A stretch of 64,000 bases of DNA from a virus. The position numbers and the translations under genes are program-made. The stretch is from positions 28,737 through 92,736 of IMG/VR virus record IMGVR_UViG_3300043823_000671; one strand, 5' to 3'. This document shows, piece after piece, positions 35,866-62,229 of this stretch (within the stretch, counting starts at the first letter, position 1; each line of letters starts with the position of its first letter). The notes below the pieces were generated by a model that saw only the letters and a program-made list of their open reading frames with translations, had not been told where the DNA came from and searched no databases.

Positions 35866-37587
35866 ATGGAAAAAATGAACGTTATCGATGTTGTGGCAGG
35901 CGTTTCCCTTATTGGGATTGCCACCAACACCACATTGCCAGAAGACGTTCGTAAGAGCGCCGAAGAAATGGTTGCAGATGGTCACACGTCGGCAGACCTC
36001 TTGGCGCTTGCTGGCTCCGACAGCGAAGTATCTCTTATTTTGGTCCCCGCCACCAGCCAAAATGACTCCCCCGACTGGGAGCGTTATTTGGAAAAGGCTG
36101 TTGGTTTTCCGTTCACCATGGCACCTTCCCCCGTTCCTGAGCAAGAGGACACAACGGGACCTGGCGCCGTGCAAGTAAAACTCGACCCCAATACAGTCGC
36201 ATCAATTCTCAATGCTGTACAGGGAGATGATTCATCAGACTCTTCTGATTCTTCAAGTTCGGAAGAAGGGGAATCATCCTCAAGCAGTTCATCCTCCAGC
36301 GATTCCTCTTCTTCCAGCAGTTCTTCTTCCAGCAGTTCTTCTTCCAGCAGTTCTTCGTCAAGCAGTTCATCTTCAAGTAGTTCGTCGTCCAGCAGTTCGT
36401 CCAGCAGTTCGTCAAGCAGTTCGTCAAGCAGTTCAGACGACTCTGGTGTATTCATGATTTCCGATGACAGCAGTTCATCTTCAAGCAGTTCTTCGTCCAG
36501 CAGTTCTTCGTCCAGCAGTTCAGACGACTCTGGCGTATTCATGATTTCCGATGACAGCAGTTCATCTTCAAGCAGTTCGTCTAGTTCAGACGAATCAATT
36601 CTTGGAGAGAATTGGAAAGATGGTCTCGACCCATGGCAAGTAGAAATTGCCGAAGCGTTAGACGACATGGTCGATGAACTGGGTCGCATCCCTTCTGGAG
36701 ATGTCGACTATGTAGACATCTCGCCAAAGTTATCAATGGGCATGACTTGCTCTAACTGCATCGCCCAAGGCGACTCGGGCTGTGACTGGGTTGCGGTTTC
36801 CTGCGCCCCTACAGGTTGGTGCAAGTTGAATCTTGTGCCCGTCCTTATTCGCTCATCAAGCGAAGCAAATTCTTTTTACCAAAAGTCTGCAGGCGAGGAA
36901 AACTCAGAAGATACTTCCGCTGAGGATGACTCTTCGATGGTCCCGACCGAGGGCGACTTCGGTGTAATGATGCCAAAGGACATTGCGAAGGACGGTGATG
37001 CGGGCGCACCCGCCCCGGCACCCGCTGGCTCTAACGCCGGGCTTGCTTTTGATAACGGTCCGACGACTGAGGGCGTTCACCTCGACACCCCGGTTTGGGA
37101 TGACGGGAAAAAGAAGCGCAAGAAGCGAGTAGCCAAGTCTGAGGAAATCCCCGGTACCATCCGCAAGGACGCAGAACAGCGTTACACCCTCGGTCCCTGG
37201 TACGTTCCAAACCGGAGCGACGCACACGGCGAGTGGACTGACCCGCAGGAACTACAGCAGGCTTTGTGGGGATACGTCCGCAATGGCGACCGTGACATCC
37301 GACTCCAGCACAATGTTGACATTGTTGCGGGCGAGTGGCTTGAGGCTTTGACGATGCCTTATGAAGTTGAATTCCCAATGTTGCAAGCGGACAGCGGGCG
37401 AGTGAACAATGTTAAGTTCCCTCCCGGAACCGTTTTCTTGGGAGTCCAGTGGAAGCCGTGGGCTTGGGAACTCGTCAAGGCTGGAGAAATCCGTGGTTTC
37501 TCAATCGGAGGAACTGGGGCGGGTATTGAGGTTGACCTCCCGACTGCGGACGAACAACCAGCAACGTTCCCAACTGTTCAGCAGTAA
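35866..37587 (+). CDS. Prohead protease (XkdF-like) with long acidic/poly-Ser N-terminal region
   Basis: C-terminal EQRYTLG..Y.P...DAHGEW....L.......I.LQH....GE..E....GT...G......WE.VK.GEIRGFSIGG. Confidence 0.82.
   Translation: MEKMNVIDVVAGVSLIGIATNTTLPEDVRKSAEEMVADGHTSADLLALAGSDSEVSLILVPATSQNDSPDWERYLEKAVGFPFTMAPSPVPEQEDTTGPGAVQVKLDPNTVASILNAVQGDDSSDSSDSSSSEEGESSSSSSSSSDSSSSSSSSSSSSSSSSSSSSSSSSSSSSSSSSSSSSSSSSSSSSDDSGVFMISDDSSSSSSSSSSSSSSSSSSDDSGVFMISDDSSSSSSSSSSSDESILGENWKDGLDPWQVEIAEALDDMVDELGRIPSGDVDYVDISPKLSMGMTCSNCIAQGDSGCDWVAVSCAPTGWCKLNLVPVLIRSSSEANSFYQKSAGEENSEDTSAEDDSSMVPTEGDFGVMMPKDIAKDGDAGAPAPAPAGSNAGLAFDNGPTTEGVHLDTPVWDDGKKKRKKRVAKSEEIPGTIRKDAEQRYTLGPWYVPNRSDAHGEWTDPQELQQALWGYVRNGDRDIRLQHNVDIVAGEWLEALTMPYEVEFPMLQADSGRVNNVKFPPGTVFLGVQWKPWAWELVKAGEIRGFSIGGTGAGIEVDLPTADEQPATFPTVQQ
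36228..36590 (+). repeat. Poly-serine-encoding low-complexity tract with 87-bp direct repeat
   Basis: Iterated (TCN TCN AGC AGT)-type units; SSSDDSGVFMISDDSSS duplicated at 36427 and 36514. Confidence 0.95.
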
Positions 37588-37595
37588 GGAATGCC

Positions 37596-39074
37596 GTGGC
37601 GCTAACCAATGAAGAACAACTTGAAATAGCGCAGTGGATTGAGGTCGCCAAGGGCGACAAGGCTGGACACCGTTTTCACGGCAACCAGTGGGAAAAGGTC
37701 GGCGCTGATGGCGGTACGGCAGGGACCGCCAGCCACAATGTGAAAACCCCGCACGGGCAGAGCGATGGCGACATCAAGGCGTGGGCTAAGAAAATAGCAA
37801 TTTCCCTAAATGAAGGGAAGCACCCGAATATCAACGGCTCCGACTTGCCGAAGTTGTTTACCGCATTCAAAGAATTGGACAGCGGTAACCCGGATATTTC
37901 AAAGTTACGTATAAATGGAACCGAACTGATGGGCGGACAGGGGAAGGGGCTGTTGCGGTCCCAAATGCCACAAATTCCGCCTTCCGAGCGAGAGGCGTTT
38001 CTCGACTGGGCTAGGGAAGAACACGGCGTCATTATTGAGCGTAAGGATATGGACCCGACGCTACTCAAGCCAATCCAAAGCGAGATTTCAGGGACACGCT
38101 CCGGGTGGCTTTTTACCAAATATGAAAACGGCGGAATCCCGAGAGAGCAAAGAATCCTCGTTTCCAAAGACAACTACATTATCGATGGTCACCACACCTG
38201 GGGCGCTTCAGTGGGTCTGAAGTTCTTGAACAACGACTACAACATCCACGTTTATCAAATGGACCTGAACTGGCGGGACGCCCTAAATATTACGCATGAA
38301 TATGCGGCGAAAATGGGCTACGAAGCCCAGACGCTTGAGGGCAAGAAGGTTGATGGCACAACCAGCAACCTATCCAAAGAGGCTGAGGGGCACGCCTTCC
38401 ACGGCAACCAGCACACGGGCGGGCTCGGGGGCGCCGGTAAGACGGAAACGCCACGTCAGATTGACCCAAACCGCTACGAAGTACCGGAAGACCGCAATGA
38501 ATCGCCAAAGATGGATTTAGGCGGAATTTTTGACTCGGTCAAGGCGGAAGGGGGAGTCACCGCCAGCACGATTGGCGAAGGAATCCCAACTTCTGGGTAT
38601 TTCTGTGCAATGGGCAATCCCCATGCAGACCAAGCCCCGATTTCCATTATGGAGAACGAAGACGACTTTACAAAGTTCACCTCTGACTTCTTACAAAAAA
38701 ACGCAGAACTTTTGGCAGAAAAAGGCAATTTCCTTGGAATTTTCAAAGATGAAGAAACTGGGACTGTTGACTTTGACGTGTCTCAGCACTTCTCAGATTT
38801 GGAAGAAGCCAAGCAAGCGGGCGCTTCAAGGGACCAGAAGTCAATTTGGGATATCGGTAATTCCGACATAATCGACACCGGCGGTTCTGGTAAGATTGAT
38901 AAATCAATTCGTAGGAGTGCATTCATGGCTAAGGCAAAGCAAGAACTGACGTTCGTTCAGACACCTAAGAACCTAAAAGAAATGTCTCGTGCCGAGATTG
39001 AAGATTTTGCCCGCAACCTTTTCAAACAACTTACGAATTCTTCGGACGAAGAGAAGCCGACTCAAGCGGAGTAG
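37596..39074 (+). CDS. Tagged polyprotein: ParB/Srx-like domain plus unknown domain
   Basis: Tags at 37650 and 38376; LKPIQSEI..ILVSKDNYIIDGHHTWGA. Confidence 0.65.
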   Translation: MALTNEEQLEIAQWIEVAKGDKAGHRFHGNQWEKVGADGGTAGTASHNVKTPHGQSDGDIKAWAKKIAISLNEGKHPNINGSDLPKLFTAFKELDSGNPDISKLRINGTELMGGQGKGLLRSQMPQIPPSEREAFLDWAREEHGVIIERKDMDPTLLKPIQSEISGTRSGWLFTKYENGGIPREQRILVSKDNYIIDGHHTWGASVGLKFLNNDYNIHVYQMDLNWRDALNITHEYAAKMGYEAQTLEGKKVDGTTSNLSKEAEGHAFHGNQHTGGLGGAGKTETPRQIDPNRYEVPEDRNESPKMDLGGIFDSVKAEGGVTASTIGEGIPTSGYFCAMGNPHADQAPISIMENEDDFTKFTSDFLQKNAELLAEKGNFLGIFKDEETGTVDFDVSQHFSDLEEAKQAGASRDQKSIWDIGNSDIIDTGGSGKIDKSIRRSAFMAKAKQELTFVQTPKNLKEMSRAEIEDFARNLFKQLTNSSDEEKPTQAE

Positions 39075-39206
39075 AGAAACCGGCATTTTGCAAATCTGAG
39101 GGTAAGATTTCTGCGGAAGTCGCCCACCCGGAGATTGCAAATGCAAAATTTCAATACCTACGCATTCTCTGGCACTCACTCGTGCACCCACGGGGGTTTT
39201 TAGCAA

Positions 39207-39839
39207 ATGGCTGTAAAAACCTTTGAGCAAATCTACGGCTGGCTAGAACTCGCAAAGGGTGGAGCGGGCTCCGGTCCCCCGGTGGGTCACACTTTTCGGG
39301 GCAATCGCTACACCAGCGGTGTGGGGGCTGGGCGCACACACGATATCCGACCTGGCACCGAAAATTTCCGTTATTCGCAGAACCTAGACTCCGCAAAGGC
39401 GCACGTAATTTCTGCCCAAACAGCAGTAAGGAATGCGGACTTTGGCGAAGCATACCGCCAGTTGAACGAGGGCGCCTACCACTCATCGCAGGCGGCAATG
39501 AAACTACAAGAGCCGGGTGGTTACACGAACAGAAGCCTTGGTAATGAGGCAAAGGGAAACTACGTCCTGTTTCACCACACCGCCAACTTGTGCGAAATCG
39601 CAAACAAGGCAATCCACGATTATGCAAGCGCCTTGAAGGGCGCACAGTCCCAAGAGGAAATCGAATCTGCCCGCTCGGTGGCGGAAAATTCCCGCCTCGT
39701 CGCAGAAGAGAGCATGAAGTCGTGTATGCAACATCTGGTTACGGTTGACCGAATCAGAATCGCCACCAAAGACCCGGCTTTTAGCACGACGACGTTTACG
39801 GCGCCGTCAACGATTCAAGGAGCACCAGTCGTAGCATGA
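39207..39839 (+). CDS. Tagged helical protein
   Basis: Leader QIYGWLELAK|GG then GHTFRGNRY (39255-39311). Confidence 0.65.
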   Translation: MAVKTFEQIYGWLELAKGGAGSGPPVGHTFRGNRYTSGVGAGRTHDIRPGTENFRYSQNLDSAKAHVISAQTAVRNADFGEAYRQLNEGAYHSSQAAMKLQEPGGYTNRSLGNEAKGNYVLFHHTANLCEIANKAIHDYASALKGAQSQEEIESARSVAENSRLVAEESMKSCMQHLVTVDRIRIATKDPAFSTTTFTAPSTIQGAPVVA

Positions 39840-40282
39840 CACAACCAACTACCCTCCCAATGGCTCTTGGAAATGCCCTTGCTGACGCAACGGTCATGTA
39901 CCACCGGACACACGGTTTCCACTGGAACGTCACCGGGAAAGACTTTCCCCAGTGGCACGCCAAGTTTGAGGAAATCTACGAGGACGTCCTCGACAGCCTG
40001 GACCCAATGGCTGAGTGCATCCGCAAGTGCAACGGGTATGCGCCGTTTCGCCTGGGCGACCTTTCCGCACGAACAAGCGTGAGCGATAGCCAGCCATCTG
40101 ACTATTCACCCGAAACGCTTGTCCCAGACCTGCTCGCAACAAACGACGCAGTTCTAGTAAGTCTGAACATCGCTTTCCAAATGGCAAGCGCACAGAATCA
40201 GCAAGGGGTTGCCAACTTCCTTGCCGACCGCATCGACCAACACAATAAGTGGCAGTGGCAACTCTCTGCCTCACTGTCATAG
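39836..40282 (+). CDS. dps: Dps/ferritin-like protein
   Basis: HGFHWNVTGKDF.QWH.KFEEIYE..D..AE, G.ANFLADRI..H.K..W.L. Confidence 0.9.
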   Translation: MTQPTTLPMALGNALADATVMYHRTHGFHWNVTGKDFPQWHAKFEEIYEDVLDSLDPMAECIRKCNGYAPFRLGDLSARTSVSDSQPSDYSPETLVPDLLATNDAVLVSLNIAFQMASAQNQQGVANFLADRIDQHNKWQWQLSASLS

Positions 40283-40289
40283 GAGAAAC

Positions 40290-41441
40290 ATGAACAACCC
40301 TTTTCTTATCAACAAGAACCACGGCGGTTCGACTGCAAATGAAATCATCGCAATCGCAGACAAGAACGTCGCTATCGCAGATTCACTCTGCGAACAGGCA
40401 AAGCAGTCTGCGACTAATGGCGACTTCAAGACCGCTGGCGACTTCTGCCTAACTGCGGCGGACCGCTACTTTGCCTCGTTCCACTTGTACGAGCAGGCAT
40501 CACGCACGGCGCACATGGACCGTCAACAGTACATCGACTTGTCAAAGGGCGCATTCGACGCTTCCGTCGGAGCCACCGAGCAAGCAAAGGCTTACTACGA
40601 CGCCATCGCTTCAGCAAAGAACCCGACTGTTGCAACAATCCCAGACCGCTATGACTCGACTTTCAAGAAGTCATCTGGCTTTGGCGCAGGCGACCTTTTG
40701 TTCCCGATTCTGGGTGGCGAAGACGTTGTTGCAAAGGCGACAAGCGAGGCTCAGGGCGACGCCTTTGCCGACAACAAAGACTTCGAGAGTGCAATCAATG
40801 CGTATCTAGCCCAGGCGGTAAAGCACGACCAGGCTATCCCCGGCGCAAAGGCTAAGGGGGACACCGACGCTGTTGCTCACCACGTCAACGAGGCACAACG
40901 CCTGCGTTCGAAGGTCAAGGACCTCAAGAGCAAAAAGTTGGCAGAAGGCGACATCGCAAACGAAATCAACAAGTCGGTGACTAGCGGATTCAGTAGCGAC
41001 GCACTTCTCTACCCGTTGACCAAGGAAACCCCGGTCGGTCACGCCTTCCGTGGCAACCAGTACTCAAAGGTCGACTCGGACAACGCACGCCAAATTTCTG
41101 AGCGAGCCTCGGACGCATGGTCAAAAATTGGTACGAGTTCACCCCTGGAGATGGCACGGCAACACGTTAGTTTGGCGAATATGCACAACGCCGAAGCAGA
41201 GCGACTTCGTGCTGAAGGTGGCAAGCAGGACCTAATTGACGCTCACGTAAAAGCGATGAAGGCACACGTAAGCGCCTACAAAAAGTGGGATGCGGTCGCA
41301 AAGCAACCTGCAAACTCGGGCGAATCCAACGACGCAACCAGTAGTGCCTGGAACGCAAGCCAAAAGGCTTCGACCTTGAGCGGTAGCGCATTGTCCGTTA
41401 TCCCAGAAATCAATGGAGCCGGTTCGGGCACAATCGAATAG
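40290..41441 (+). CDS. Tagged helical multi-module protein
   Basis: AGGAG RBS before ATG 40290; tag GHAFRGNQY at 41022-41063; two F(S/G)xxxLL(Y/F)P motifs. Confidence 0.7.
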   Translation: MNNPFLINKNHGGSTANEIIAIADKNVAIADSLCEQAKQSATNGDFKTAGDFCLTAADRYFASFHLYEQASRTAHMDRQQYIDLSKGAFDASVGATEQAKAYYDAIASAKNPTVATIPDRYDSTFKKSSGFGAGDLLFPILGGEDVVAKATSEAQGDAFADNKDFESAINAYLAQAVKHDQAIPGAKAKGDTDAVAHHVNEAQRLRSKVKDLKSKKLAEGDIANEINKSVTSGFSSDALLYPLTKETPVGHAFRGNQYSKVDSDNARQISERASDAWSKIGTSSPLEMARQHVSLANMHNAEAERLRAEGGKQDLIDAHVKAMKAHVSAYKKWDAVAKQPANSGESNDATSSAWNASQKASTLSGSALSVIPEINGAGSGTIE

Positions 41442-41503
41442 GCGAACTCCGTTTTACCAAATCCCGGTGTACGATTTTTCAGGAAAGAAAGGACATTTCC
41501 ATC

Positions 41504-42700
41504 ATGATTCGTGTAGCAAACACAACCCCAGGCATCGTCTCGTTTGAGCAGACGGTTGCAAAGGGCTCAACCGCCCAAATCGCTTCAGCGCAGATTGCCA
41601 AGGCGAGTGCAGAACTGGGTTCCGCCCGTGTCGAAATGGACAATGCCACCTTCCGTCTCCAAAAGGCAGAAGAGTCGATGAAGGCAACCAAGATTGCCTA
41701 CTTTGAGGCAGTCGAAAAGTCCGCCTGGAACAAGGACGAACTGCGTAAGTCGTATAACAACGCCCTCGCCGGTTACCGTGAAGCAGATGCTCGTTTCGCC
41801 AAGGCAAGCGAAGTTTTTACCACCGCCGAATCCGTGTTCAACTCGCTAAACGACTTGGCTAAGGGGAAGACCCCCAAGGCTCTCCGCTCGGAGGCTGATG
41901 CCCACGACAAGAAGACCGAAGAAGCAAAGGCTTCTGGAGACTTTGACGCCGTTCAGCAACACGCCCAAGCAAGCGCTAAGTTGCGTGCTGAGGCGAAGGA
42001 AATGGAAGACGACTCAAACGAAGAGAAGCGTGGTCAAGAAGTTTCAGATGTCGCCAAGCGGGAGTTCTCGGACGCCAAGCGCCAGTCCCTCGCCCAAGAG
42101 GGCAAGGCAATGCCTGACGGCTCCTACCCAATCGAAACCAAGGGAGACCTTGCGAACGCCGTCCAGTCCTTCGGGCGTGCCAAGTCACCCGCTCAAGTAA
42201 AGAGTCACATCATCCGCCAGGCTCAGGCGCTCAACGCCGTAGACCTCTTGCCGGAAGAGTGGATGAAGCCCGCTGTACAAAAGGCTGAAAAGGGCGAATG
42301 GAAAAAGCCGTGGCTAGACGACTCATCGGACGAATCATCGGACGACTCATCGGATGACACTGGCGACGACTCATCCAAGGAAGCACCGGCAAAGACCGTC
42401 GGCAAGGCTCAGGCTTGGCTCGTTATTTGCCCCACCTGTGGCGGAGAAGACGACACCTGCCCGACTTGCGACGGAACCGGTTCTGTCCCCGAAGACCAGT
42501 CAGACGAAACATCTGACACATCAGATGAGATGACTAAGGCAAAGAAGAAGCCAGCAGTCGCTGAGTCCCCCGAGGACGACTCCACGGACGACTCCGAAAT
42601 GGATGACTCGGGTATGGAAGATAGCGATTCTGACGAGGGTTACGTTGCTAAGTCTGCTTTCAGCACAGAGTCTTTGCTCTACCCACACATCTCGAAGTAA
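41504..42700 (+). CDS. Head-associated scaffold-like protein
   Basis: Coiled coil; REFS...R..LA..G.AMPDGSYPI....DL.NA...GRA domain seen in phage maturation proteins; CPTC..CPTC finger; many [VIL]xK sites. Confidence 0.65.
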   Translation: MIRVANTTPGIVSFEQTVAKGSTAQIASAQIAKASAELGSARVEMDNATFRLQKAEESMKATKIAYFEAVEKSAWNKDELRKSYNNALAGYREADARFAKASEVFTTAESVFNSLNDLAKGKTPKALRSEADAHDKKTEEAKASGDFDAVQQHAQASAKLRAEAKEMEDDSNEEKRGQEVSDVAKREFSDAKRQSLAQEGKAMPDGSYPIETKGDLANAVQSFGRAKSPAQVKSHIIRQAQALNAVDLLPEEWMKPAVQKAEKGEWKKPWLDDSSDESSDDSSDDTGDDSSKEAPAKTVGKAQAWLVICPTCGGEDDTCPTCDGTGSVPEDQSDETSDTSDEMTKAKKKPAVAESPEDDSTDDSEMDDSGMEDSDSDEGYVAKSAFSTESLLYPHISK

Positions 42701-42718
42701 CAGGGGGCACGTAAGACC

Positions 42719-45313
42719 GTGTCTACCAATGAATCTTCGTTGAGTTCAATTGCCGGATGGGTAACATCATTTTTTAGCAACCGTTCAGAAACGGTCGCTA
42801 AGGGCGACGTGCCGGGGCACGAGTTCCACGGCAATCAATGGAGCAAGGAAGCAGTTGCCCAACTTCGTGAGCGCTCACTCATGCACGCCGATAAGACACG
42901 TCAGGTCAACGCCCCGTATACAGACCCCATGCGAATCACGTGGGACTCGGGCAAGGATGCCCACCAAGTCAACAGTGAAAAGTTAGCGGATATCGCAAAC
43001 AAGATTGAGAACGACCCGTCGAAAACGCTCAACGAGCACCTGGCGGACCTCAAGCAAGAGCACGATGGGCTCAAGCAACAACAGGCTAAAGATTTATTGT
43101 CGAACTACTTCAATCGAAAAAGCCACTTCACCACTGACGCCATTGAGCAGGCTATGGAAGTTATCAAGCCGATTGCCGATAAAGAAAACCTGTCGGTAGA
43201 AAAACAGATTATTCAAAAGGGCGACGTGCCGGGTCACCCCTTCCACGGCAACCAATATCAGACAGTCGAAGCGATGGCTAGTGATATAAAAGCCAAGTAC
43301 CCAAGAATGTCTTCGGTCAGCCGGGGCAAAGACAGGTTGGCTGAGTCCGTCAAAAGGGGAGGGGATAGGTCCATCTTTAACGTTGGCGAAAGTGCTCACC
43401 TCGCCATGGACGCAAATGAATTATCGAAGCAATTCAATAGTCTAAGAAGCAACCACCCGGGCGCAGATAACCCCGACACCGTTTTAGCGTCAAGCCCGTC
43501 CTCAAGTGTAACCATGAATACGATGGATACACTTTTTCGAAGTAGTGAAGCACCAGACTCTCTGATTCAAAATGCTTTAGAAAAATCTTTCAAAGAGTAC
43601 AACGGTAATACCAAATCACTTTTTGACTCGTCAGGGAAAATCCGCCCTGGGCGTATGGATGAAATTAATAAACAATACGCAGACTCGGTAACAGACCTAA
43701 CCCAAAAGTTGACATTGGCTGATTCAGCAAAAACAAAACTTCTATCTGACCCGACAGTCGAAAACGCCACAAGTTTTATTAACGCCGTAAATGATGCGAC
43801 AACTCAAATGTCGGATATGCGTCGTCTTGGGCTTTTCTCTAGCGCCGTAGACCGTTTCGCCGGAGATAAAACGGTTGCGGAAACCAACTACCAGCAAACG
43901 CTATCCCTAGCAAAACAAACATACGGCTTGACTGACGCAAAATCCTTGCTCCCGGCAATTACGGGACTTCAAAAAAATGTAACAGACGCCTACTCTCAAA
44001 TTAATAAAGTGCTAGAGAAAACCGGATTTGACAACCTAACCCCAGAAGTGGTCAAGGGGCTCGACGGGAAATACGCACAAGTGGCTGAGGGGAGTTCGGC
44101 AATCAGTGTGTTGGCTAAATTGCCCAATTTCGATAGAACGACAAGTTACTTTGACTCGACACCAAAATTTGGGTCATCAGGAAAAACCAGCGAAGAAAAT
44201 CAGAAAATTCTCACAGATGTCGTGGATGCAAGTCATAAACTCGCCAATGAAACTGAATCAGGGAAAAACATTGTTAGTGCGTATGCGACACTCAATGATT
44301 TAACGAATGAACTCTCGGCAATAAAAAGCGCCAGTGACCTGGCTCCGACTTTGGGGAAGTGGGCGGGCGAAATCGACAATGCTTACAGAAAAGCACAAAC
44401 GGCTTACAACTCTTCTAATTATGGAACACCAGAAGAAGCGTTGGCTCAAAGTACCATGCGCTTGCTTAGCGACAACAAAGATTCTTTACAGGAACTTGAA
44501 AATAAAATCAACTACGCCAATTCTTATGAAGAGGCAAACAATCTGATGAGCGGAAGCGACTCCCGCCCTTTAGAAGAACGCCTGGCAGACGCAGAGGGTC
44601 TACTTAGTACGATGTCGCCTGCCGCTAGGGGGCACGGTTTCGACGGTAACACATTGAGTTTTGAAAATACTTTCAAGAAAGCGGACGGTACCGAACAGGC
44701 GATACTTCCGAGCGATGCTCAACCATCTAGAATTACCCGTCAAGATTTTACAAACACTTACGACAATCTCCGTAACACGGTGACCGGTTTGAAAGCGGAG
44801 GTTGCATCAAACCGTGCAAGCCAACTCATGGGCGACATACAAAAAATAGACACTGCAAACCCGACGGATGAAGACTTTGCAAAAATCGAAGAAGTGAAAA
44901 ATCTTTTGTCGGAGTCAATAAATTCTTATGGCGACGGATACGATTTGACAAATTCCGCGGACGCAACAAGGTTGCAAGGCGAACTTCCAAAACTGCTGGC
45001 GAGCCACGCCAATTTAGACCTAGTAAAGAACATTGAAGCCAAGGCTTCCGGACCTTATTATTACTCCAAGTTGATGTCAATTGTCAACGGCGGAGGAAAC
45101 AACACCACTTACAAGCCAAGTACTTTGGCAAAAAAAGCGGTTGATGGCTACGACCGCTTGAGAAGTGAACTATTGCCAACCGGTCAAGACGAATCGTCAT
45201 TGAGCAGTAGCGACAAGGCGCTTTACGATTTTTACACCTCCCAGATAAATAGCGTCAATTCGATGGCTGACAAAATTGAACTCGCAAATCAACTCCAAAG
45301 GCACAACCTCTAA
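42719..45313 (+). CDS. 864-aa tagged alpha-helical protein (candidate internal/ejection protein)
   Basis: Tags at 42800 and 43217; no recognisable catalytic motif. Confidence 0.65.
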   Translation: MSTNESSLSSIAGWVTSFFSNRSETVAKGDVPGHEFHGNQWSKEAVAQLRERSLMHADKTRQVNAPYTDPMRITWDSGKDAHQVNSEKLADIANKIENDPSKTLNEHLADLKQEHDGLKQQQAKDLLSNYFNRKSHFTTDAIEQAMEVIKPIADKENLSVEKQIIQKGDVPGHPFHGNQYQTVEAMASDIKAKYPRMSSVSRGKDRLAESVKRGGDRSIFNVGESAHLAMDANELSKQFNSLRSNHPGADNPDTVLASSPSSSVTMNTMDTLFRSSEAPDSLIQNALEKSFKEYNGNTKSLFDSSGKIRPGRMDEINKQYADSVTDLTQKLTLADSAKTKLLSDPTVENATSFINAVNDATTQMSDMRRLGLFSSAVDRFAGDKTVAETNYQQTLSLAKQTYGLTDAKSLLPAITGLQKNVTDAYSQINKVLEKTGFDNLTPEVVKGLDGKYAQVAEGSSAISVLAKLPNFDRTTSYFDSTPKFGSSGKTSEENQKILTDVVDASHKLANETESGKNIVSAYATLNDLTNELSAIKSASDLAPTLGKWAGEIDNAYRKAQTAYNSSNYGTPEEALAQSTMRLLSDNKDSLQELENKINYANSYEEANNLMSGSDSRPLEERLADAEGLLSTMSPAARGHGFDGNTLSFENTFKKADGTEQAILPSDAQPSRITRQDFTNTYDNLRNTVTGLKAEVASNRASQLMGDIQKIDTANPTDEDFAKIEEVKNLLSESINSYGDGYDLTNSADATRLQGELPKLLASHANLDLVKNIEAKASGPYYYSKLMSIVNGGGNNTTYKPSTLAKKAVDGYDRLRSELLPTGQDESSLSSSDKALYDFYTSQINSVNSMADKIELANQLQRHNL

Positions 45314-47139
45314 TGTCTAACGTACCCCAATCGCTTATTCGCCTTCTTGAAATCACCAAAGGCGGGAAGGGCTCGGGACGCAAGCCCGGTCACAACTTTG
45401 GTGGTAACCAGTACGTAAAGTACGATGAAAACGGCAACCCCATAGCCACTGACCGGTCACCAAAAAAAACTCCAAGTGTCGATTCACCAACCCAGGAAGA
45501 GCCCAAGCCATTAGTCGAGCCAAAAATCCAAAGGGCTATCGACGCATCTACCGCAATTGCATCAATGATTCACATTCCTGAGGCTCGGAGGGACACATAC
45601 ATCAAAAACCTAACGACGATTCTTACTGACAAAGAAAGTTATGAACTGAATTATTCCCGTCAGAAAGATGTACAAACTGCCGACACTACCAATGGCGCAA
45701 TCCTCGGGATGCTCGGATACACAGCAAAACCAAAAGTTGTTTCGACTGATGAATTCAATAAGATTGACTCAACCTGCTATTACTCGGGTCTTAATTCTGG
45801 AAGCAAGTCTGTGCCAATCCCCGGCAAGATGTCAAACCTCTTGTACGGCGAGACTCCACGGTATGGCGGTCCAATGTTTGGTGCGGCGTTCTACACATCA
45901 GAAAAAGTCGACACTCCAATGTCGTACGCAACGAATCAAGGAAACGAACAAGCCATATTTAGATTTAAGTGGGCTGACCCTTCAAACGTTTACAACGAAA
46001 ATACAGGAACCCTTACAAGCACCACTGCCTTCACTGACGTCGTATTGCCGTCTTCGAACAAAACCATTTGGGACGCTAACGGTCTGACCGATATTATGAA
46101 GGAGAACGGTTACAGCGATAGGGAAATTAGCCAGATATCCATAGCATTTTCGGACTCTTCAATGGCAAAGAGCATCACGCCAGCCCTCGCTGGCTATGAC
46201 GGATATTACGCAGGAAGACAGAACTACATGATGGGCTTGAACCGTGGTGCGATGATATTCCCAGATACGTTCATCCGTGTCCAGGCGAGCGACAACGCAA
46301 CCGTTAGAAACGCCATCAGCAATTATGACTTGGGTAGCGCACGGGGGCTGACGGAAGAGACCGTCCCGCAGGACAAGGTGCTGACCACGAGCAAATCTTA
46401 CGAGCCAAGTGAGGTTTTGGAAAAAGGCGATGTAGTAGGTCACGTTTTTCACGGCAACCAATGGCAAAACGGTTTCGGCGGGGGCTCTAGTAAAAGCGCA
46501 ATTTTCCGCTATTCACGAGTTGTTGCCCACCAAATGTATGTTCGTGCCACAACGAATGAGCCCGACATCACCGCACACTTGTTCAAGGTTGCAAACTCGA
46601 CAGGTGGTACGCCCGTCAAGCCGGAGTTCAGAATCAAGGCAGAGGCTTCTCTATCTCGCAAGATTCGTAGCGACGCACAGGATTTGATGGGCGTTCCCGG
46701 AGAAACACCACGAAGCGCTATTGAGAAAGCGGGCGCCGATATCGGAGACAGCCTGCGCTACACAATTTCTTATCCCGACGCCAAGTTTGGTGCTGGCGTG
46801 TCGGAGACCCTCAAGCAAATGCAAGATACTTTTGGGTACGTCCCTCTGAAAATCAAAAATTATTTCAATGACGACCCCGGGAACTCATATCGTGGAATCA
46901 ACTGCGTTTTCAAAGACCCAAAAACAAGCCAGTTGTTCGAGTTGCAGTTCCACACACCTTCGTCTAGCGCAATGGTTGAAGAGGTCCACGGTTTATACGA
47001 AAAGTACCGTGTGTTAGACAAGTCTTCGGACGAGTACGAGGCTGGTCAGCAACAAATGCGCTCGCTATGGGGCACGGTTCCAATCCCACCTGGCGCAGAA
47101 GGCATCGGCGCCCATTCGGTCAAGAAGCAACTTGACTAG
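45313..47139 (+). CDS. Tagged polyprotein: ART-like domain plus RelA/SpoT-type alarmone synthetase
   Basis: Tags at 45358 and 46423. C-terminal RIKAEASLSRKI, DSLRYT, KNYF, YRGINCVF, FELQFHT, H.LYEKYR. Central FGAAFYTS..GYDG is PARP/ART-like (weaker). Confidence 0.8.
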   Translation: MSNVPQSLIRLLEITKGGKGSGRKPGHNFGGNQYVKYDENGNPIATDRSPKKTPSVDSPTQEEPKPLVEPKIQRAIDASTAIASMIHIPEARRDTYIKNLTTILTDKESYELNYSRQKDVQTADTTNGAILGMLGYTAKPKVVSTDEFNKIDSTCYYSGLNSGSKSVPIPGKMSNLLYGETPRYGGPMFGAAFYTSEKVDTPMSYATNQGNEQAIFRFKWADPSNVYNENTGTLTSTTAFTDVVLPSSNKTIWDANGLTDIMKENGYSDREISQISIAFSDSSMAKSITPALAGYDGYYAGRQNYMMGLNRGAMIFPDTFIRVQASDNATVRNAISNYDLGSARGLTEETVPQDKVLTTSKSYEPSEVLEKGDVVGHVFHGNQWQNGFGGGSSKSAIFRYSRVVAHQMYVRATTNEPDITAHLFKVANSTGGTPVKPEFRIKAEASLSRKIRSDAQDLMGVPGETPRSAIEKAGADIGDSLRYTISYPDAKFGAGVSETLKQMQDTFGYVPLKIKNYFNDDPGNSYRGINCVFKDPKTSQLFELQFHTPSSSAMVEEVHGLYEKYRVLDKSSDEYEAGQQQMRSLWGTVPIPPGAEGIGAHSVKKQLD

Positions 47140-47187
47140 AGTACGGTACGGTGCTATCATGTATGTCTTGGTTAGGAAAGTTGCATC

Positions 47188-47466
47188 ATGAGCACGGATA
47201 GTGTCTTTTTCTACAGCATTGCACAACCAGACGCAGGAGTAATCGGAAGTGCGACTCTTGAAGATGGGAAGTTCGGCGCCGAAACGGGTGTAGCAAGTCT
47301 TATGATTGAAAGCGTACGCAAGCGTTTTTATTTAGAAGATGGCGACAGCACGGCTATTACTGACCAAAAGGTTTTTGACACCCTCAGTGATAACTGGGTT
47401 AGCGGTGTTTTTTTCACGCTTCCCAAAGAGTTCACCGGGGCTCAGATAAAGGAATACGTGGGATGA
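47188..47466 (+). CDS. Small acidic protein downstream of the alarmone synthetase
   Basis: AGGA RBS; position next to a toxin-like gene. Confidence 0.55.
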   Translation: MSTDSVFFYSIAQPDAGVIGSATLEDGKFGAETGVASLMIESVRKRFYLEDGDSTAITDQKVFDTLSDNWVSGVFFTLPKEFTGAQIKEYVG

Positions 47467-47678
47467 GCGACGCAAAAGATTATTACTATTATCAACTGAC
47501 TTCTTTGACGACCGGGGAGCCGTCGCTGTACTACCGCCTGGCTACCAACTTCACCAACCCAGAGGTTTGGAGCGGTGTGGCAAAAAGTTGGGTCCCAAGC
47601 GAATCTTTGATGGACAAGTTGATGAGTGGGGACCCGGCGGTCGACGAACTCGATTCTGACCCCACCAAGAACCTCTAA
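47463..47678 (+). CDS. Candidate immunity protein of the RelA/SpoT toxin domain
   Basis: 71 aa, YYY..L.RL..EVW...W..S..L.......D..EL pattern reminiscent of small immunity proteins of MuF-linked (p)ppApp synthetases (recalled resemblance). Confidence 0.45.
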   Translation: MSDAKDYYYYQLTSLTTGEPSLYYRLATNFTNPEVWSGVAKSWVPSESLMDKLMSGDPAVDELDSDPTKNL

Positions 47679-47743
47679 GTTTCTCGGTTTCTGTATTGTT
47701 GGGATAAAGTATGGGGTAGTCACGCCCCGATTTAAAGGTCCCT

Positions 47744-49186
47744 ATGAGCGATACATTCACGGAAATCAGCACGTGGCTAACTGACGCTCGTAATATCCAG
47801 GTGCACAAGGCTGGTAACGCAAGTGCGCTTATTGACTGGTACAACGCCGGGGCGGATGGTCAAATCAACTGGGGCTCGGAAGGCGACTTTGACGCCTGCG
47901 TATCAATTGCCTCAAAGTACATGGATGACGACCAGGCAAAAGGCTTCTGCCAAAATCGCCACATCGATGCGACCGGGGAGCCAGCAGGCAAGGCTCCGGG
48001 CGAGGTAAAAAAGGGCAAGATTCTCAACAGCGTCATTGCCGGTGTAGTCGCCTCACATAACCTAAATATGAGTTCAGCAATGGTTGGCGGTATTGCGGGA
48101 ATAGCGACAGCAATCGCCCTTGCAAGCAAGAGTCTCAATGGCTCAGTCAACCCAACAACCGTCCAAAGTGCCGTGCAGAATGCGGTGGGCGCTTCGGTAA
48201 CAATCGACTCAAGTTCCCTGGCAGATGCCCTGTACAACTTGTATAGCGACGCTGGAAACGCCGGAATATCCGTCGGGGCGAGCCAAACAGGTTTCACCAA
48301 CGTAGATGGAGCCAAGGCTCTGAATAGCCTTATGCAGAATAGAGCCGATATCCTCAAGGGGCTCGACAAAACGACACTCTCCCTAATCTCAGACTCGATA
48401 AGCCAAGGGCTAATCAACGGTCAGGATTTGGGTGATATTGGAACGCAGATTAATGCCCTGGTCAACAACCCGACAAGGCTCGACATGATTCTCCTTACCG
48501 AGACAAGCCGTGCTTACAATGCGGGTCTTATCGGCGCATACCAGCAGGCTGGCATTCAGCAGTTCAACTGGATTTGCACCGAAAGCGCTTGTCAGCCCTG
48601 CGAAGAAATGCAGGGCGTCCACGATATTGACGAACAGGAGCCACCGCTCCACCCAAACTGTCAATGCGAAATCTCGCCGGTAATGGCTGAGGATTTGACT
48701 AAAGATGCGCTGGGGTCATTTACGCCCAAGGCTTCAATCTCCGCCCAAAGCGCCCTGGAGTCAGCGACAAAGGGGTACCAACTCCGGAACTTAGGCAAGT
48801 GGGAATCTGCAACAATCGCCCATCAGTTCGCCGCTAAAAAGTACCGTGAGGCGTCTGCCCACGAGCGTTCAGCACACGCACCGAACAGCCAAGATAACGC
48901 CCGAATTCTGGACGAAAAGGCTGGCGAGCAGGACCAACTAGCGAATATGTCACAACTCATGTCGGTAGCCCCAACGCACTCACCGGCTGAAGTATCTAAG
49001 TACGAAAATCCAAAGTCGAAGCCCGGGTCACAAGACTGGGGATATCTCGACCCGGCAGAAAATGTTCTACTGCCGGACACCGTCGCCTCGTTTGAAACGG
49101 AAGATGAGTCAAGCAGTTCCGAGGGGAACATAAAGCCAATCAGCGTTGCCTACATCCAAGGGCAACAAGACGCCACAAAGAAGTGA
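47744..49186 (+). CDS. MuF/gp7-like minor head protein with N- and C-terminal extensions
   Basis: R..MI..TE..RA.N.G....Y...G....W......C..C....G......PPLHPNC.C; N-terminal WG..GDF..C....KY.....G.C..RH domain. Confidence 0.85.
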   Translation: MSDTFTEISTWLTDARNIQVHKAGNASALIDWYNAGADGQINWGSEGDFDACVSIASKYMDDDQAKGFCQNRHIDATGEPAGKAPGEVKKGKILNSVIAGVVASHNLNMSSAMVGGIAGIATAIALASKSLNGSVNPTTVQSAVQNAVGASVTIDSSSLADALYNLYSDAGNAGISVGASQTGFTNVDGAKALNSLMQNRADILKGLDKTTLSLISDSISQGLINGQDLGDIGTQINALVNNPTRLDMILLTETSRAYNAGLIGAYQQAGIQQFNWICTESACQPCEEMQGVHDIDEQEPPLHPNCQCEISPVMAEDLTKDALGSFTPKASISAQSALESATKGYQLRNLGKWESATIAHQFAAKKYREASAHERSAHAPNSQDNARILDEKAGEQDQLANMSQLMSVAPTHSPAEVSKYENPKSKPGSQDWGYLDPAENVLLPDTVASFETEDESSSSEGNIKPISVAYIQGQQDATKK

Positions 49187-50901
49187 GCCTAGAAATGGGC
49201 GATATTGAAAAGGGCATTTTCCAGCCCAACTTCTACACGTTCACCAATACAGACATAGTTCGCCGGGAGCCACTGGGCGGGGATTACAAGGGAAACCAAA
49301 ATGCCGGTTTTACCTACGTCCAATTCAAAGACGGCTCACGGGGTATAGAAAAGCAAATGAAAGACTGGTACGGGAATAAAACCGGTCGCCTTTACAAAGC
49401 CGAGGTTCTTGCGACGCAAGAATACTTAGCATCACGTGTCGGTGAGGTAATGAATGCCCCGATTCGGGATTGCCTTTTTACCTCAGATGACGCCAAGACA
49501 ATCATCATGCCTTACGTTTTGGGCAAGTCGGGGGAGGAACTTGGCGGGGAGGGTGTCCCGGAAAACGAGCAAGGCGTAGCCCTGAATCTCTTCGATTACT
49601 TGACAGCCAACTCCGACCGTAGACCCAAGAATCTCTTGTTCACCGATGACAATCGAATCGTCGGAATCGACCACGCTCTTTGTAACTTCAGACCCCGTAC
49701 GCCAAGTCCAGAACTTGTTTCGCAACTTTGGAATTTTGGGGTAAACGCCGAGAGCCTCAATATTTTGAAGCCAAAGTTGGAGAACCTCGTCACCATTTTT
49801 GGGACGTTGGGGATGCTGGATAAGTTCCAAAACATGATTGGCAACTTAGACCTTCTTATAAAAGACCTAGAAGAAATCGCCCAGTATGCGACAATCACCA
49901 AGAACGATGACTTCGAATCCCGCCTGGGGCGATGCTACGAATTGGCTGGTTCCTATGCGCCAACGCAACCTGGCTCAACACTTATCCACGGGAGCATCCA
50001 GGGGTTTGGATATCCACGGATTGGTCACGCCTGGGTTCAGTTGAAAGACGGCTCTGTATGGGAGCCGACCACGGACACGGTCTACCCCGAAAAAACCTTT
50101 CGCTCTTATTTCAATGCGGAAATAACCAAGGCTTATGACCCGGCATCAGTGGCTAAAGGGGACGTAGCCGGACACGAATTCCATGGGAACCAGTACACCG
50201 GCGGGTTTGTGGCGCTCACATCAACGACGATTGATAAAAAACTGGGGAATAAGGAAATCCTGGGCGGGATACAAAACACAGGTTTTACCAAAGTCAGACT
50301 TTCCGATGGCTCAATCGGCATTATCAAGCATGGGATGAAGGAAGAAGAAGCAAACCGTGAAGTGCTTTCAGCGGATATCGCCCGTGCGATTGATGCGCCA
50401 ATCAGGGATGCTGTAATCGTAAAGCAAAGTCCCACGACGAATCGATGCGACGTGTTGCACCCTTTTGTTGCGGGAGAAACGCTGGCTCAAACATTTGGGA
50501 GCGAAGATATCGGCGCCGAAGAAACGCTGGGCTTAGTAAAAAATGAACTTGGTCCACAGGCGCTCAAGGATTTGCAGGGCATAGATTTTGCGGACTCCGT
50601 AATGGGTAACTCTGATGTCCACCTTGGCAACATCATGCAGTATGAAGAGAACGGCGTTACCCGGTTGGTTGGGATTGACCATGGACTATCAATCATGTAC
50701 CCCGAGTCGCCGGAAGAACTTGTTTCAAAAGCAGAAGCGCTCGGCATTGACAGCAAAACTATCAACGAGTACAACACCCACATGGAAGATGTGAAGAAGA
50801 CGACGAACGTAATACCCGCCCTTCGTGATGACTTCTCTTACGTCATGGAAAATTGGTCACAGTTTTATGACCTATGGAAGCGCAAAAACGCTCAAAAATA
50901 A
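49183..50901 (+). CDS. Tagged polyprotein: HipA/PI3-4K-like kinase, papain-like domain, second kinase
   Basis: FDYLTANSDRRPKNLL..GIDHAL; GRCYELA..LIHG..HAWV..VWEPT; tag at 50155; DSVMGNSDVHLGNIM..GIDHGL. Confidence 0.78.
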   Translation: MSLEMGDIEKGIFQPNFYTFTNTDIVRREPLGGDYKGNQNAGFTYVQFKDGSRGIEKQMKDWYGNKTGRLYKAEVLATQEYLASRVGEVMNAPIRDCLFTSDDAKTIIMPYVLGKSGEELGGEGVPENEQGVALNLFDYLTANSDRRPKNLLFTDDNRIVGIDHALCNFRPRTPSPELVSQLWNFGVNAESLNILKPKLENLVTIFGTLGMLDKFQNMIGNLDLLIKDLEEIAQYATITKNDDFESRLGRCYELAGSYAPTQPGSTLIHGSIQGFGYPRIGHAWVQLKDGSVWEPTTDTVYPEKTFRSYFNAEITKAYDPASVAKGDVAGHEFHGNQYTGGFVALTSTTIDKKLGNKEILGGIQNTGFTKVRLSDGSIGIIKHGMKEEEANREVLSADIARAIDAPIRDAVIVKQSPTTNRCDVLHPFVAGETLAQTFGSEDIGAEETLGLVKNELGPQALKDLQGIDFADSVMGNSDVHLGNIMQYEENGVTRLVGIDHGLSIMYPESPEELVSKAEALGIDSKTINEYNTHMEDVKKTTNVIPALRDDFSYVMENWSQFYDLWKRKNAQK

Positions 50902-50993: not shown

Positions 50994-51106
50994 CGGTAAA
51001 GCCCCCTAAGGGGGGCGCTACCCAAGGAGGCGTCTGTGACGAACAGCACCAACGTAAGTAGCCAAGCAGTGTTGCTTGGTTTTTGTCCCTCTGGCATTGG
51101 AGCCCG

Positions 51107-51691
51107 TTGAGGGGTCCGGTGCGAGGGATTGTGTTAGCCCTCGCTACTTCAGTAGGAATCTTGCACCCGCATATTCCGGCTTCTAGCACCGCCGTATCCC
51201 CGCACGTCCAAACTGCTAACCCGACCACAACCACTTCGGTCATGGTCGATAAGCCCCACGACGTGAGCGTAAGGCTCTCGCTTGAGACCCCCGTGAGCGT
51301 CAGCCCAACCCTGACCCCATTTGTGCAACAGACGGGTCAGAGGTTTGGAAAGGGAGCCCAAATTTCAGCACCTCGCCAAGCGATGGACGTAACGGCTGGC
51401 TCCCCGATGTCGCTTCTCCCCCCGGCAAGCCGAGCGGGGTTTACGTGCATTATGTGGATTGAGAGTCGGTCTACCCCGACAGACCTCCACCCGACTGACT
51501 TGAATACGAGTTCGTATGCAGGTGGCATCTTCCAGTTCTTGCCGTGGATTTGGCAGTATGCGGCTGGTCAACTTGGTATATCGGCTACCTACGCAAACGA
51601 AGCGACCATCTCCGAGCAGTTTCAGGTTGCCGGGTGGTATTACACACGCAATGGTGGTTTCTCGCCGGAGTGGACTGGCGACAACTGCTAG
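51107..51691 (+). CDS. Secreted Rpf/lysozyme-like transglycosylase
   Basis: Signal-like N-terminus, Thr/Pro linker, CI..IES....A.G.FQF...W......A..A...EQ...A...Y...G...W...C. Confidence 0.75.
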   Translation: MRGPVRGIVLALATSVGILHPHIPASSTAVSPHVQTANPTTTTSVMVDKPHDVSVRLSLETPVSVSPTLTPFVQQTGQRFGKGAQISAPRQAMDVTAGSPMSLLPPASRAGFTCIMWIESRSTPTDLHPTDLNTSSYAGGIFQFLPWIWQYAAGQLGISATYANEATISEQFQVAGWYYTRNGGFSPEWTGDNC

Positions 51692-52098
51692 TTGCTTTTT
51701 AGCAACAGGTTTGGTACGTTGGCTCCATGAACCTTACATTTGATGAATGGCTAGAGCACGGGCTGAGCAACGGATATTGCACTGAGCAATTTTGCGACAC
51801 TCATGACGGAATACCCGTAACAGAATCCGAAGACCGGTTATTCGAAGAAGGCTATGACCCTTGCATCCATTTGGTGAGGTTGGGCAACCCTGGAATCTGG
51901 AAAGAAAACGCCGACAACTACGGCACGGAATACGATGGGTAAGAACTGCAACCACAATTGGGTTATGAACTACGTTTCACCAAAGGTATTCGCCCGTTGC
52001 ATCAACTGCTCGGACCGCTTCCCCCTGGATGAGTCTGTAACTGGCACGCCATACAGAGGACCGGTCCCGGCGAAGTTCAAGAACGCCGAGGGGAATTC

Positions 52099-52127
52099 TT
52101 GATTCACTGACTAAACGGTGCTACACT
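52099..52127 (+). promoter_or_regulatory. Promoter with CTAAAC-N5-TACACT motif
   Basis: TTGATT-N17-TACACT upstream of the LexA-like gene. Confidence 0.6.
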
Positions 52128-52151
52128 TTTCCGAATCAGCCGAAGGAAGAA

Positions 52152-62220: not shown

Positions 62221-62229
62221 TCTTGGGAA

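Follow-up and report, generated by a model that had tools for sequence, protein, structure and literature searches.

A short conserved peptide, which we call the header, recurs ahead of one protein module after another in a viral DNA stretch of 64,000 nucleotides (hereafter the window; bases 28737–92736 of a single IMG/VR contig, IMGVR_UViG_3300043823_000671, with a CheckV completeness of 74 per cent). In this phage, the header opens 14 unrelated enzyme modules that are encoded beside the head genes. We infer that it is probably the mark of capsid-packaged proteins, which the head protease would cut apart directly ahead of the conserved core of the peptide and which would then be injected, and that the core itself has a role. 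An earlier note on this DNA had proposed capsid cargo that is cut after a Lys residue, each module keeping the same N-terminal tag. This is still the best-supported model, albeit an unproven one, and it gains support because the residues preceding the header are linked to the protease and because the header occurs in portal, MuF, and DarA fusions. Taken as a whole (a header that opens capsid-packaged cargo modules, which are cut by the phage's own prohead protease and then injected), the model has in our judgment a slightly better than even chance of being right. The present analysis adds three points to it: the header type appears to covary with the protease family, site and core are separable, and the carriers lack a common structural reader.

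The header is a composite of three parts: constrained preceding residues, a near-invariant core of 13 residues, and a Gly-rich linker. The core has the consensus G-[DE]-x-x-G-H-x-F-[HR]-G-N-Q-[WY]. Across 521 copies, the Gly four residues ahead of G-H is 97 per cent conserved and is followed by D or E in 97 per cent, whereas the core residues G, H, F, G, N, and Q are conserved at 98–100 per cent (G-H-x-F at 99–100 per cent and G-N-Q at 98–100 per cent), with H or R between the F and G-N-Q. The aromatic residue after Q is W or Y in 90 per cent of copies, and T-x-G and a Gly/Ser-rich stretch follow. Directly ahead of the header stands K (65 per cent), L (14 per cent), A (7 per cent), or F (3 per cent), and the third position back is V, I, or L in 62 per cent.

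Under the favored model, the XkdF-type prohead protease of this phage would cut between the Lys and the following Gly, with aliphatic-x-Lys as its site. The cut would split polyproteins into single modules and strip short N-terminal leaders, and the core would become the new N-terminus of every module, joined to the folded enzyme by the flexible Gly-rich linker. Modules would enter the procapsid either on their own, in the order leader, header, and domain, or fused downstream of a portal, MuF, DarA, or protease protein, would be cut during maturation, and would leave with the DNA, on the model of the internal proteins of T4 and the Dar proteins of P1. The core most likely has a cargo-specific job, for instance retention in the head, exit via portal and tail, or a role in the host; DNA binding, ejection, and metal binding, which the earlier note had suggested for it, are guesses.

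A six-frame regular-expression scan of the window returned 11 matches to the core pattern, all on the plus strand, in seven open reading frames (ORFs), and at the positions that the earlier note had listed, compared to a mean of 0.02 matches in 50 shuffles of the window. The full 92,736-base contig has 14 copies, as three more precede the window (at 22148, 22666, and 23077 in genome coordinates). Seven of the 11 window copies have the canonical form K-G-D-x-x-G-H-x-F-H-G-N-Q-[YW], and the remaining four (at 38376, 39255, 41022, and 45358) have a different, shorter, or longer spacer from the Lys to G-H-x-F. ORF 3233–4843 has two canonical copies, one at 3278–3319 (residues 16–29, preceded by a leader of 15 amino acids) and an internal one at 3818–3859 that separates its two modules. 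In ORF 37596–39074, a canonical copy at 37650–37691 follows an 18-amino-acid leader, and the internal copy at 38376–38414 is a short-spacer variant (Lys, three residues, and a G-H-x-F-H-G-N-Q-H core). The single copy of ORF 39207–39839, at 39255–39311 after a 16-amino-acid leader, is a long-spacer form, K-G-G-x-G-S-G-x-x-x-G-H-x-F-R-G-N-R-Y, which is also present in a relative (L209). ORF 40209–41441 has one internal copy with a variant spacer (41022–41063), and ORF 42719–45313 has two canonical copies, at 42800–42841 after a 27-amino-acid leader and, internally, at 43217–43258. ORF 45313–47139 has a long-spacer copy at 45358–45414, preceded by a 15-amino-acid leader, and a canonical copy at 46423–46464 that joins two folded modules; an internal canonical copy in ORF 49183–50901 (50155–50196) completes the set. 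An aliphatic residue (Val, Ile, or Leu) stands two positions ahead of the Lys in all 11 window copies, as the earlier note had stated, and in all 14 copies of the genome. Gene annotations likewise bear out the location that had been given for nine of the 11 copies, namely, a 13-kb stretch that runs from the XkdF-type protease gene to the scaffold and capsid genes and surrounds the MuF gene.

Identical residues of header copies use the same codon in 56 per cent of copy pairs, compared to 45 per cent expected from codon usage. The mean nucleotide identity between the genome's header copies is 66 per cent over 42 nucleotides, with a median exact run of 8 nucleotides, and the header peptide is kept in genomes of 51 per cent and of 65 per cent G+C. 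Because codons vary between copies, it is the peptide that is conserved, not the DNA, and selection acts on the protein, which agrees with the conclusion that the earlier note had drawn from synonymous differences.

The same measurements bear on the idea that the header is mainly a DNA-level recombination handle for swapping cassettes, with the peptide incidental, much as motifs demarcate the tips of polymorphic toxins. Cassettes are indeed inserted and replaced exactly at headers between close relatives. In one close relative, which is represented by five metagenomic contigs that are apparently overlapping pieces (its portal is 88 per cent and its capsid protein 96 per cent identical to those of this phage), the gene order is kept, whole cassettes differ, and every junction lies at a header: there are three extra cassettes between the two modules of the ORF 49183–50901 counterpart, two other cassettes ahead of the counterpart of the first module of ORF 37596–39074, and replaced content in ORF 42719–45313. 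The cassettes between headers (median length of 205 amino acids) are diverse, with 1,101 of them falling into approximately 460 single-linkage families (361 singletons) that occur in many neighbor combinations. These exchanges fit the "plug-and-play" character that the earlier note had ascribed to the system. As the header copies within the genome are only 66 per cent identical in DNA with short exact runs, their synonymous sites are nearly randomized, and the peptide persists at very different G+C contents, we regard the recombination-handle idea as extremely unlikely and exchange at headers as better seen as a consequence. MuF polymorphic toxins, in which a head protein has swappable toxin tips, and the VENN and PxxxxDPxGL demarcation motifs likewise place a conserved motif at a point of exchange or processing. 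However, the header has no sequence similarity to VENN or PxxxxDPxGL, the MuF protein of the window is a separate, header-less ORF, and the header is found on many other carriers, with many copies per protein.

The header does not appear to belong to the folded domains that it precedes. In an AlphaFold2 model of ORF 45313–47139 (plus strand; 13 sequences; mean predicted local distance difference test [pLDDT] score of 73), two modules are folded (residues 66–350 and 393–600), and both headers are predicted to be disordered, with pLDDT of 29–38 over residues 1–35 for the first and of 26–30 over residues 355–395 for the second. Since both headers lie in segments with pLDDT below 40 beside and between folded modules, they are not part of a neighboring folded domain. 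Searches of Pfam, NCBIfam, and PDB sequences with the header returned no family, no solved chain, and no known autoproteolytic domain. The second module has the fold of a small alarmone synthetase (RelA/SpoT; Foldseek match to 8vx3, E = 1.7e-12, target TM-score of 0.77), with a further match to the type VI effector Tas1 (6ox6, E = 1e-6). In addition, this module (window 46459–47139) is similar to part of the NCBIfam model NF041399 of the XopAD/skwp type III effector family, namely, its C-terminal end (E = 4.4e-26, far short of the cut-off for a full-length match), which indicates that the two share a domain.

A profile built from the 11 window copies and searched against 1.84 billion representative proteins found at least 1,482 protein clusters with E ≤ 1e-3, of which 393 reach E ≤ 1e-10. 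The best matches are proteins of up to 3,461 amino acids with up to nine header copies and a polyvalent-type repertoire. Nearly all database members are metagenomic and either without names or labeled "hypothetical"; one is annotated as an SPP1 gp7 family head morphogenesis protein. The header is widespread in uncultured phages and rare in cellular genomes: more than 118 IMG/VR stretches, often several per contig, match a strict back-translated pattern, whereas a looser pattern finds just 19 stretches in 185,579 prokaryote species genomes (one genome per species). The matches in cellular genomes are prophages or phage-like contigs assigned to Verrucomicrobiota, Beta- and Gammaproteobacteria, Acidobacteriota, Actinomycetota, Chloroflexota, Bacteroidota, and Saccharibacteria; the distribution is biased toward viruses. 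Prophage regions of cultured or culturable bacteria, namely, of Ideonella livida TBM-1 (L125), Hydromonas duriensis DSM 102852 (L134), and an Akkermansia muciniphila metagenome-assembled genome (L137), have headers either on proteins with PBECR1 or DarA_N domains or after a Mu-type portal, and they could serve as experimental systems. The phage has no close relative among cultured phages. By portal DNA, the closest ones are Arthrobacter phages of the Laroye group (65–67 per cent identity over approximately 480 nucleotides), and in the Laroye record, the 24 kb that cover the head module contain no header. A tblastn search of 50,697 cultured-phage records with a 35-amino-acid header found none, although one header alone would be too short to give a significant match in such a search.

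The modules and their fusion partners point to the capsid interior. Pfam domains in 63 header proteins include ART-PolyVal, ADPrib_exo_Tox, PARP, InPase, ParB_N, Zeta_toxin, 2H, Tpt1, and HipA/PI3K-like domains, and cassettes also contain GNAT, topoisomerase I, and MuF domains; proteins P0001–P0003 combine eight or nine headers with ART, kinase-like, InPase, and MuF domains. Copies in prophages are associated with DarA_N, DarA_C, and PBECR1/2 domains, and in proteobacterial prophages, specifically, the header is found in proteins with DarA_N, DarA_C, InPase, or PBECR1. Contigs of Luteolibacter, Akkermansia muciniphila, and Bifidobacteriaceae encode a Mu-type (Portal_Mu) portal whose C-terminal extension contains the header, followed in one case by a PBECR2 nuclease domain, and on other contigs the header lies behind a PF04860-type portal, MuF, or XkdF. 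Proteins of these kinds (portal, MuF, DarA, and protease) are located in the capsid interior. The polyvalent and MuF repertoire and the fusions behind portal, MuF, DarA, and protease thus speak for the part of the earlier note that called the tagged proteins capsid cargo, packaging and injection themselves being conjectured from them. Almost half of the header proteins (74 of 150) start with a leader of 6–45 amino acids that ends in the lineage's own site, directly followed by the header, and at the sequence level, five window ORFs start in this way.

The prohead protease ORF of this phage (35866–37587, plus strand) has a C-terminal XkdF-type (Peptidase_S78_2) domain at residues 433–554. The domain matches Pfam PF14550 (E = 4.5e-10) over 119 of the 126 profile positions and is an intact member of the family, and its His482 and Ser546 are invariant in 12 relatives. 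The N-terminal part of the protein (window 35866–37116) contains a poly-Ser tract of approximately 120 residues, the length of which varies between relatives, followed by a conserved region with four near-invariant Cys residues (residues 295–319), with no family assignment.

Ahead of the header, the third and the first positions back are constrained, with a free residue between them (aliphatic-x-Lys in this phage). These residues are uniform within a protein or contig and different between lineages: besides aliphatic-x-Lys, we found [LI]-x-L (18 of 18 headers on a 192-kb contig), x-[HL]-L, [RK]-x-[LA], x-E-F, x-x-E, K-H, x-x-N (Verrucomicrobiota), x-x-D (proteobacterial prophages), and x-x-A (a Bifidobacteriaceae contig). 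The fraction of header pairs with the same preceding residue is 0.78 within a protein and 0.53 between proteins; as synonymous sites are nearly randomized, this uniformity is maintained by selection. Two constrained positions that flank a free residue are typical of prohead-protease sites, such as those of T4 and the giant phages.

An XkdF-type protease is present in eight of the 15 long Lys-type contigs and in none of 20 non-Lys contigs (counts that disregard phylogeny and come mostly from fragment contigs). The eight include all three that are at least 90 per cent complete (in one of these, G008, the match is weak, with E = 2.4e-4, below the Pfam cut-off), and the twenty include G019, G020, and G024, each at least 92 per cent complete; a further 18 shorter loci also have the protease. 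An iterative hidden Markov model started from the XkdF domain of the window found close relatives alone among the fetched loci. In complete carrier genomes with a Mu gpI-type protease or with none that was recognized, the preceding residue is Leu, Phe, Glu, Asn, Asp, Ala, or His, not Lys. Four contigs of one Leu subtype (G020, G022, G023, and G032) have a Mu-like_Pro (Mu gpI-type) protease, which in G020, the contig annotated in full, is fused to a scaffold-like C-terminal part and adjoins portal and capsid genes of the same families as in the window phage. These patterns suggest that the header type tracks the protease family. The earlier note had proposed a test of whether the tag co-occurs with XkdF proteases. 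The tag is not tied to these, since it is also present in such complete genomes with other or unrecognized proteases; what the counts suggest is a co-occurrence of XkdF with the Lys type. The claim that a protease cuts ahead of the tag retains its basis in preceding residues that are constrained, lineage-specific, and matched to the protease family, with cleavage itself as the step that we infer.

Candidate sites of the same kind are also found without the core. This phage and its relatives have a conserved aliphatic-x-Lys, with Ser, Ala, or Gly as the next residue, at three places: the scaffold-like protein has a conserved V-V-M-K|S-A candidate site after a 30-amino-acid N-terminal element (alignment of seven relatives), the protease ORF has a conserved aliphatic-x-Lys|Ser candidate site directly before its XkdF domain, and MuF has a candidate V-H-K|A-G site after a 22-amino-acid leader. 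The 30-residue element of the scaffold-like protein (window 54090–54180) contains E-T-S-G-V-D-[RH]-P-A, which is kept in all relatives. At such places, some relatives have a header: an alignment places a full header of L113 where the window MuF has V-K-K|G, and in L087 and L209, a header and a helical cassette are inserted between the Cys-rich region and the XkdF domain, where the window protease has I-A-K|D-G. (A single-chain AlphaFold2 model of the L209 protein, which has header and XkdF in one chain, was too poor to interpret, with a mean pLDDT of 42.5.) Together, the core-less sites and the header insertions at such sites indicate that cut site and core are separable and that the core is specific to cargo.

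These sites matter for an alternative in which the whole header, core included, is nothing but the recognition element of the prohead protease, an extended stretch that the enzyme binds past the cut and that is functionless once the cut is made, and its N-terminal copies are leftovers of cassette shuffling. That would account for why the header always adjoins the putative cut site, why it is found within protease ORFs beside the XkdF domain, and why cassettes travel as header-plus-domain units. Because the candidate sites on scaffold and MuF and before the protease domain lack the core, however, the core is not needed for cleavage as such. One and the same core is found with unrelated or unrecognized protease families, and single-module proteins keep a leader and a header, which would be purposeless if the header just separated modules. 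We therefore consider this alternative unlikely.

Several observations weigh against the favored model. Among portal, capsid-protein, and protease families, there is none that all carriers share, and thus no common structural reader of the core. Many carriers have Mu-type portals and phrog_1005 capsid proteins (the latter are present in G000, G001, G009, G020, and G022), but as common readers, Portal_Mu, the phrog_1005 capsid protein, and MuF each fail in at least one complete carrier: the complete carriers G005, G008, and G019 all lack the phrog_1005 capsid protein and in some cases Mu-type portals, in searches whose positive controls matched, and MuF detection was weak and patchy. The near-complete carriers G019 and G024 matched none of six protease families searched. 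Searches for S78, S77, ClpP, and S49 as the protease of either genome gave no identification; S77 also had no match in five carrier contigs, a weak negative given that the same search matched none of 14 control genomes. As the lineages behind the link between header type and protease are few and related, that link is suggestive, not proof. Furthermore, the first modules of several polyproteins, such as the N-terminal parts of ORFs 40209–41441 and 49183–50901, have no header, all known carriers are metagenomic or unstudied prophages, and the near-invariance of the core would be unusual for residues that are merely downstream of a cut site.

The near-invariance of the core in lineages with no protease, portal, or capsid family in common suggests either a universal partner or an intrinsic chemical role. 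In the first case, the core could be a universal, portable cargo address, exposed as an N-terminus by the head protease, read by something common to very different phages and hosts (such as packaged DNA, a general feature of the portal channel, or a conserved host factor), and sufficient for retaining foreign proteins in capsids or exporting them via the tail across lineages. We put this forward tentatively and hold it to be possible but doubtful.

A partner could also be bound without any cleavage, if the header were a flexible inter-domain peptide by which uncut polyproteins dock to DNA, the capsid wall, or the portal. The precedent is the cargo-loading peptide of encapsulins, which is short and conserved, sits on a flexible linker, and directs diverse enzymes into an HK97-fold shell; such peptides are usually C-terminal and uncut and bind one defined shell family. 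The header resembles them in its shortness and conservation, its flexible Gly-rich linker, and its diverse cargo, and a dedicated retention handle could be needed, as the cassettes are not basic (median isoelectric point of 6.0). The same value gives no support to retention of the cargo by positive charge, the manner of T4 internal proteins. Yet the constrained, lineage-specific preceding residues resemble a protease site, leaders of only 6–9 residues still keep that site, and, unlike the encapsulin case, the carriers have different capsid-protein families, with no common capsid or portal family for an invariant peptide to bind. Docking without cleavage is, in our view, quite improbable.

In the second case, the core could be a self-processing element, in which Asn- or His-dependent backbone cleavage within G-N-Q would dispense with the prohead protease. 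Switch proteins of type III secretion (N|PTH), inteins, and several capsid proteins offer precedents for such cleavage, and Asn-mediated autoproteolysis is common in virus maturation. A chemical role would suit the almost invariant G, H, F, G, N, and Q in unrelated carriers as well as the near-complete carriers in which no protease was recognized. Self-cleavage, however, needs none of the preceding residues, which are nonetheless constrained, lineage-specific, and matched to the protease family; moreover, the region is predicted to be disordered, leaving no fold to place catalytic residues, and the searches found no similarity to known autoproteolytic domains. We give self-processing little credence, and cleavage by the prohead protease remains our preferred reading.

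Among described systems, the polyvalent proteins are closest in content. These are multi-domain proteins encoded among late or head genes, and their repertoire (ART-PolyVal, ADP-ribosyl exotoxin, InPase, ParB, DarA, PBECR, 2H, zeta toxin, and MuF) is in common with that of the header proteins (Iyer, Burroughs, Anand, de Souza, Aravind 2017, PMC5512222). The header polyproteins, too, have at least two distinct domains per polypeptide, a matching repertoire, and a late or virion gene location. Polyvalent proteins are proposed to be packaged, injected, and processed into units, the processing being attributed to an embedded zincin-like metallopeptidase (MPTase) domain, and P1 DarA is given as a proteolytically processed head protein (PMC5512222). 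In the header proteins, in contrast, each module is opened by a conserved peptide and a preceding site that appears to track the protease, and single-module proteins have the header too. The tagged ORFs of the window have no Pfam peptidase match; by eye, ORF 3233–4843 contains an H-E-x-x-H string. Text searches of that paper found no mention of a repeated header peptide (PMC5512222).

In layout, the closest match is with T4 IPIII and P1 DarB, which are loaded into the procapsid via short N-terminal leaders and delivered to the host; as in 74 of the 150 header proteins, a short N-terminal leader precedes the site (PMC9024508). The leader of T4 runs up to a site of the prohead protease at which two residues are constrained, an aliphatic one two before the cut and a charged one immediately before it; T4 and P1 leaders can carry foreign proteins (PMC9024508). 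The T4-type site (Leu/Ile-x-Glu, with a gp21-type S77 protease) is not the one found here, where the protease is XkdF-type and the site ends in Lys. In addition, the signals of T4 and P1 are leaders specific to each phage, which are either removed or present at one end only (PMC9024508), whereas the header is conserved after the putative cut, repeated inside polyproteins, and near-identical across carriers with differing proteases, portals, and capsids. In giant phages (SPN3US gp245 and phiKZ/201phi2-1), the prohead protease cuts many head-internal proteins at a short consensus with a fixed pre-cut residue, the propeptides are removed, and the products are ejected (PMC5694885, PMC10052503). 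Unlike the header, those sites are a three-residue motif (small-x-Glu) with nothing conserved past the cut and no modular cassette arrays (PMC5694885, PMC10052503). Literal motif searches across 8.4 million papers returned nothing relevant. The header appears to be an undescribed feature within the world of polyvalent proteins and T4/P1 capsid-targeting leaders, and the earlier note's statement that the tag had no known description agrees with the lack of one in the databases and literature searched.

Phages inject proteins along with their DNA, and, to our knowledge, there is no general means to tell which genes encode injected cargo, or how that cargo is addressed, outside T4, P1, P22, N4, and the giant phages. 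A header of 13 residues that is found in approximately 1,500 clusters and on hundreds of unrelated enzyme families would flag candidate injected effectors in metagenomes, such as anti-defense and host-takeover enzymes, and would show where modules begin and end in hundreds of enzyme families without a known function. Preceding residues that vary with the protease family would let prohead-protease specificities be read from genomes alone. If the header were sufficient for loading or delivery, it could be used for placing proteins in phage capsids.

Of the remaining head genes of the window, those of the portal, MuF, scaffold-like, and major capsid proteins are, like the cargo block, on the plus strand. 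A Mu-type portal protein (34068–35708; Pfam Portal_Mu, E = 3.9e-35; phrog_113, E = 7e-89) precedes the protease ORF, and the cargo block (37596–50901) consists of seven ORFs with headers or header-less leaders together with a Dps gene and a MuF gene. The MuF-family head protein (47744–49186; Pfam Phage_Mu_F, E = 5e-9) has no header of its own. Farther downstream are the scaffold-like protein (54090–54833), which belongs to a family of unknown function (phrog_13547), has no header, and is taken to be a scaffold from its position; a match to a head scaffolding protein family (54836–55312), between the scaffold-like and major capsid genes; and the major capsid protein (55336–56331; phrog_1005, E = 2e-97; the Phage_cap_E match is weak, below the Pfam cut-off).

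Inside the cargo block, the start of the Dps/ferritin-like gene (39836–40282; Pfam Ferritin, E = 1.4e-16; 80–86 per cent identical in relatives) overlaps the stop of the leader-header-helical-domain ORF 39207–39839, and a DNA-binding, iron-storing Dps cage protein amid putative capsid cargo recalls the ferritin-like cargo of encapsulins. Between the cargo block and the scaffold gene, the head module is interrupted by genes without an obvious head-assembly function (51083–53995), namely, a 202-amino-acid ORF with no family match, a 128-amino-acid ORF (phrog_3502, of unknown function), and a PD-(D/E)XK/Cas4-like exonuclease (phrog_69, E = 7.5e-30). After the head and neck genes, a region at 59829–63480 looks, by eye alone, like a sugar-modifying cluster, with a 578-amino-acid carbamoyltransferase-like ORF and two glycosyltransferase- or methyltransferase-like ORFs. 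Finally, in the Leu-type 122-kb phage G020, a 1,479-amino-acid collagen-like/tail-fiber-like protein and an fn3-containing protein of 804 amino acids are encoded between the portal gene and the cargo block (L199:4399–8838).

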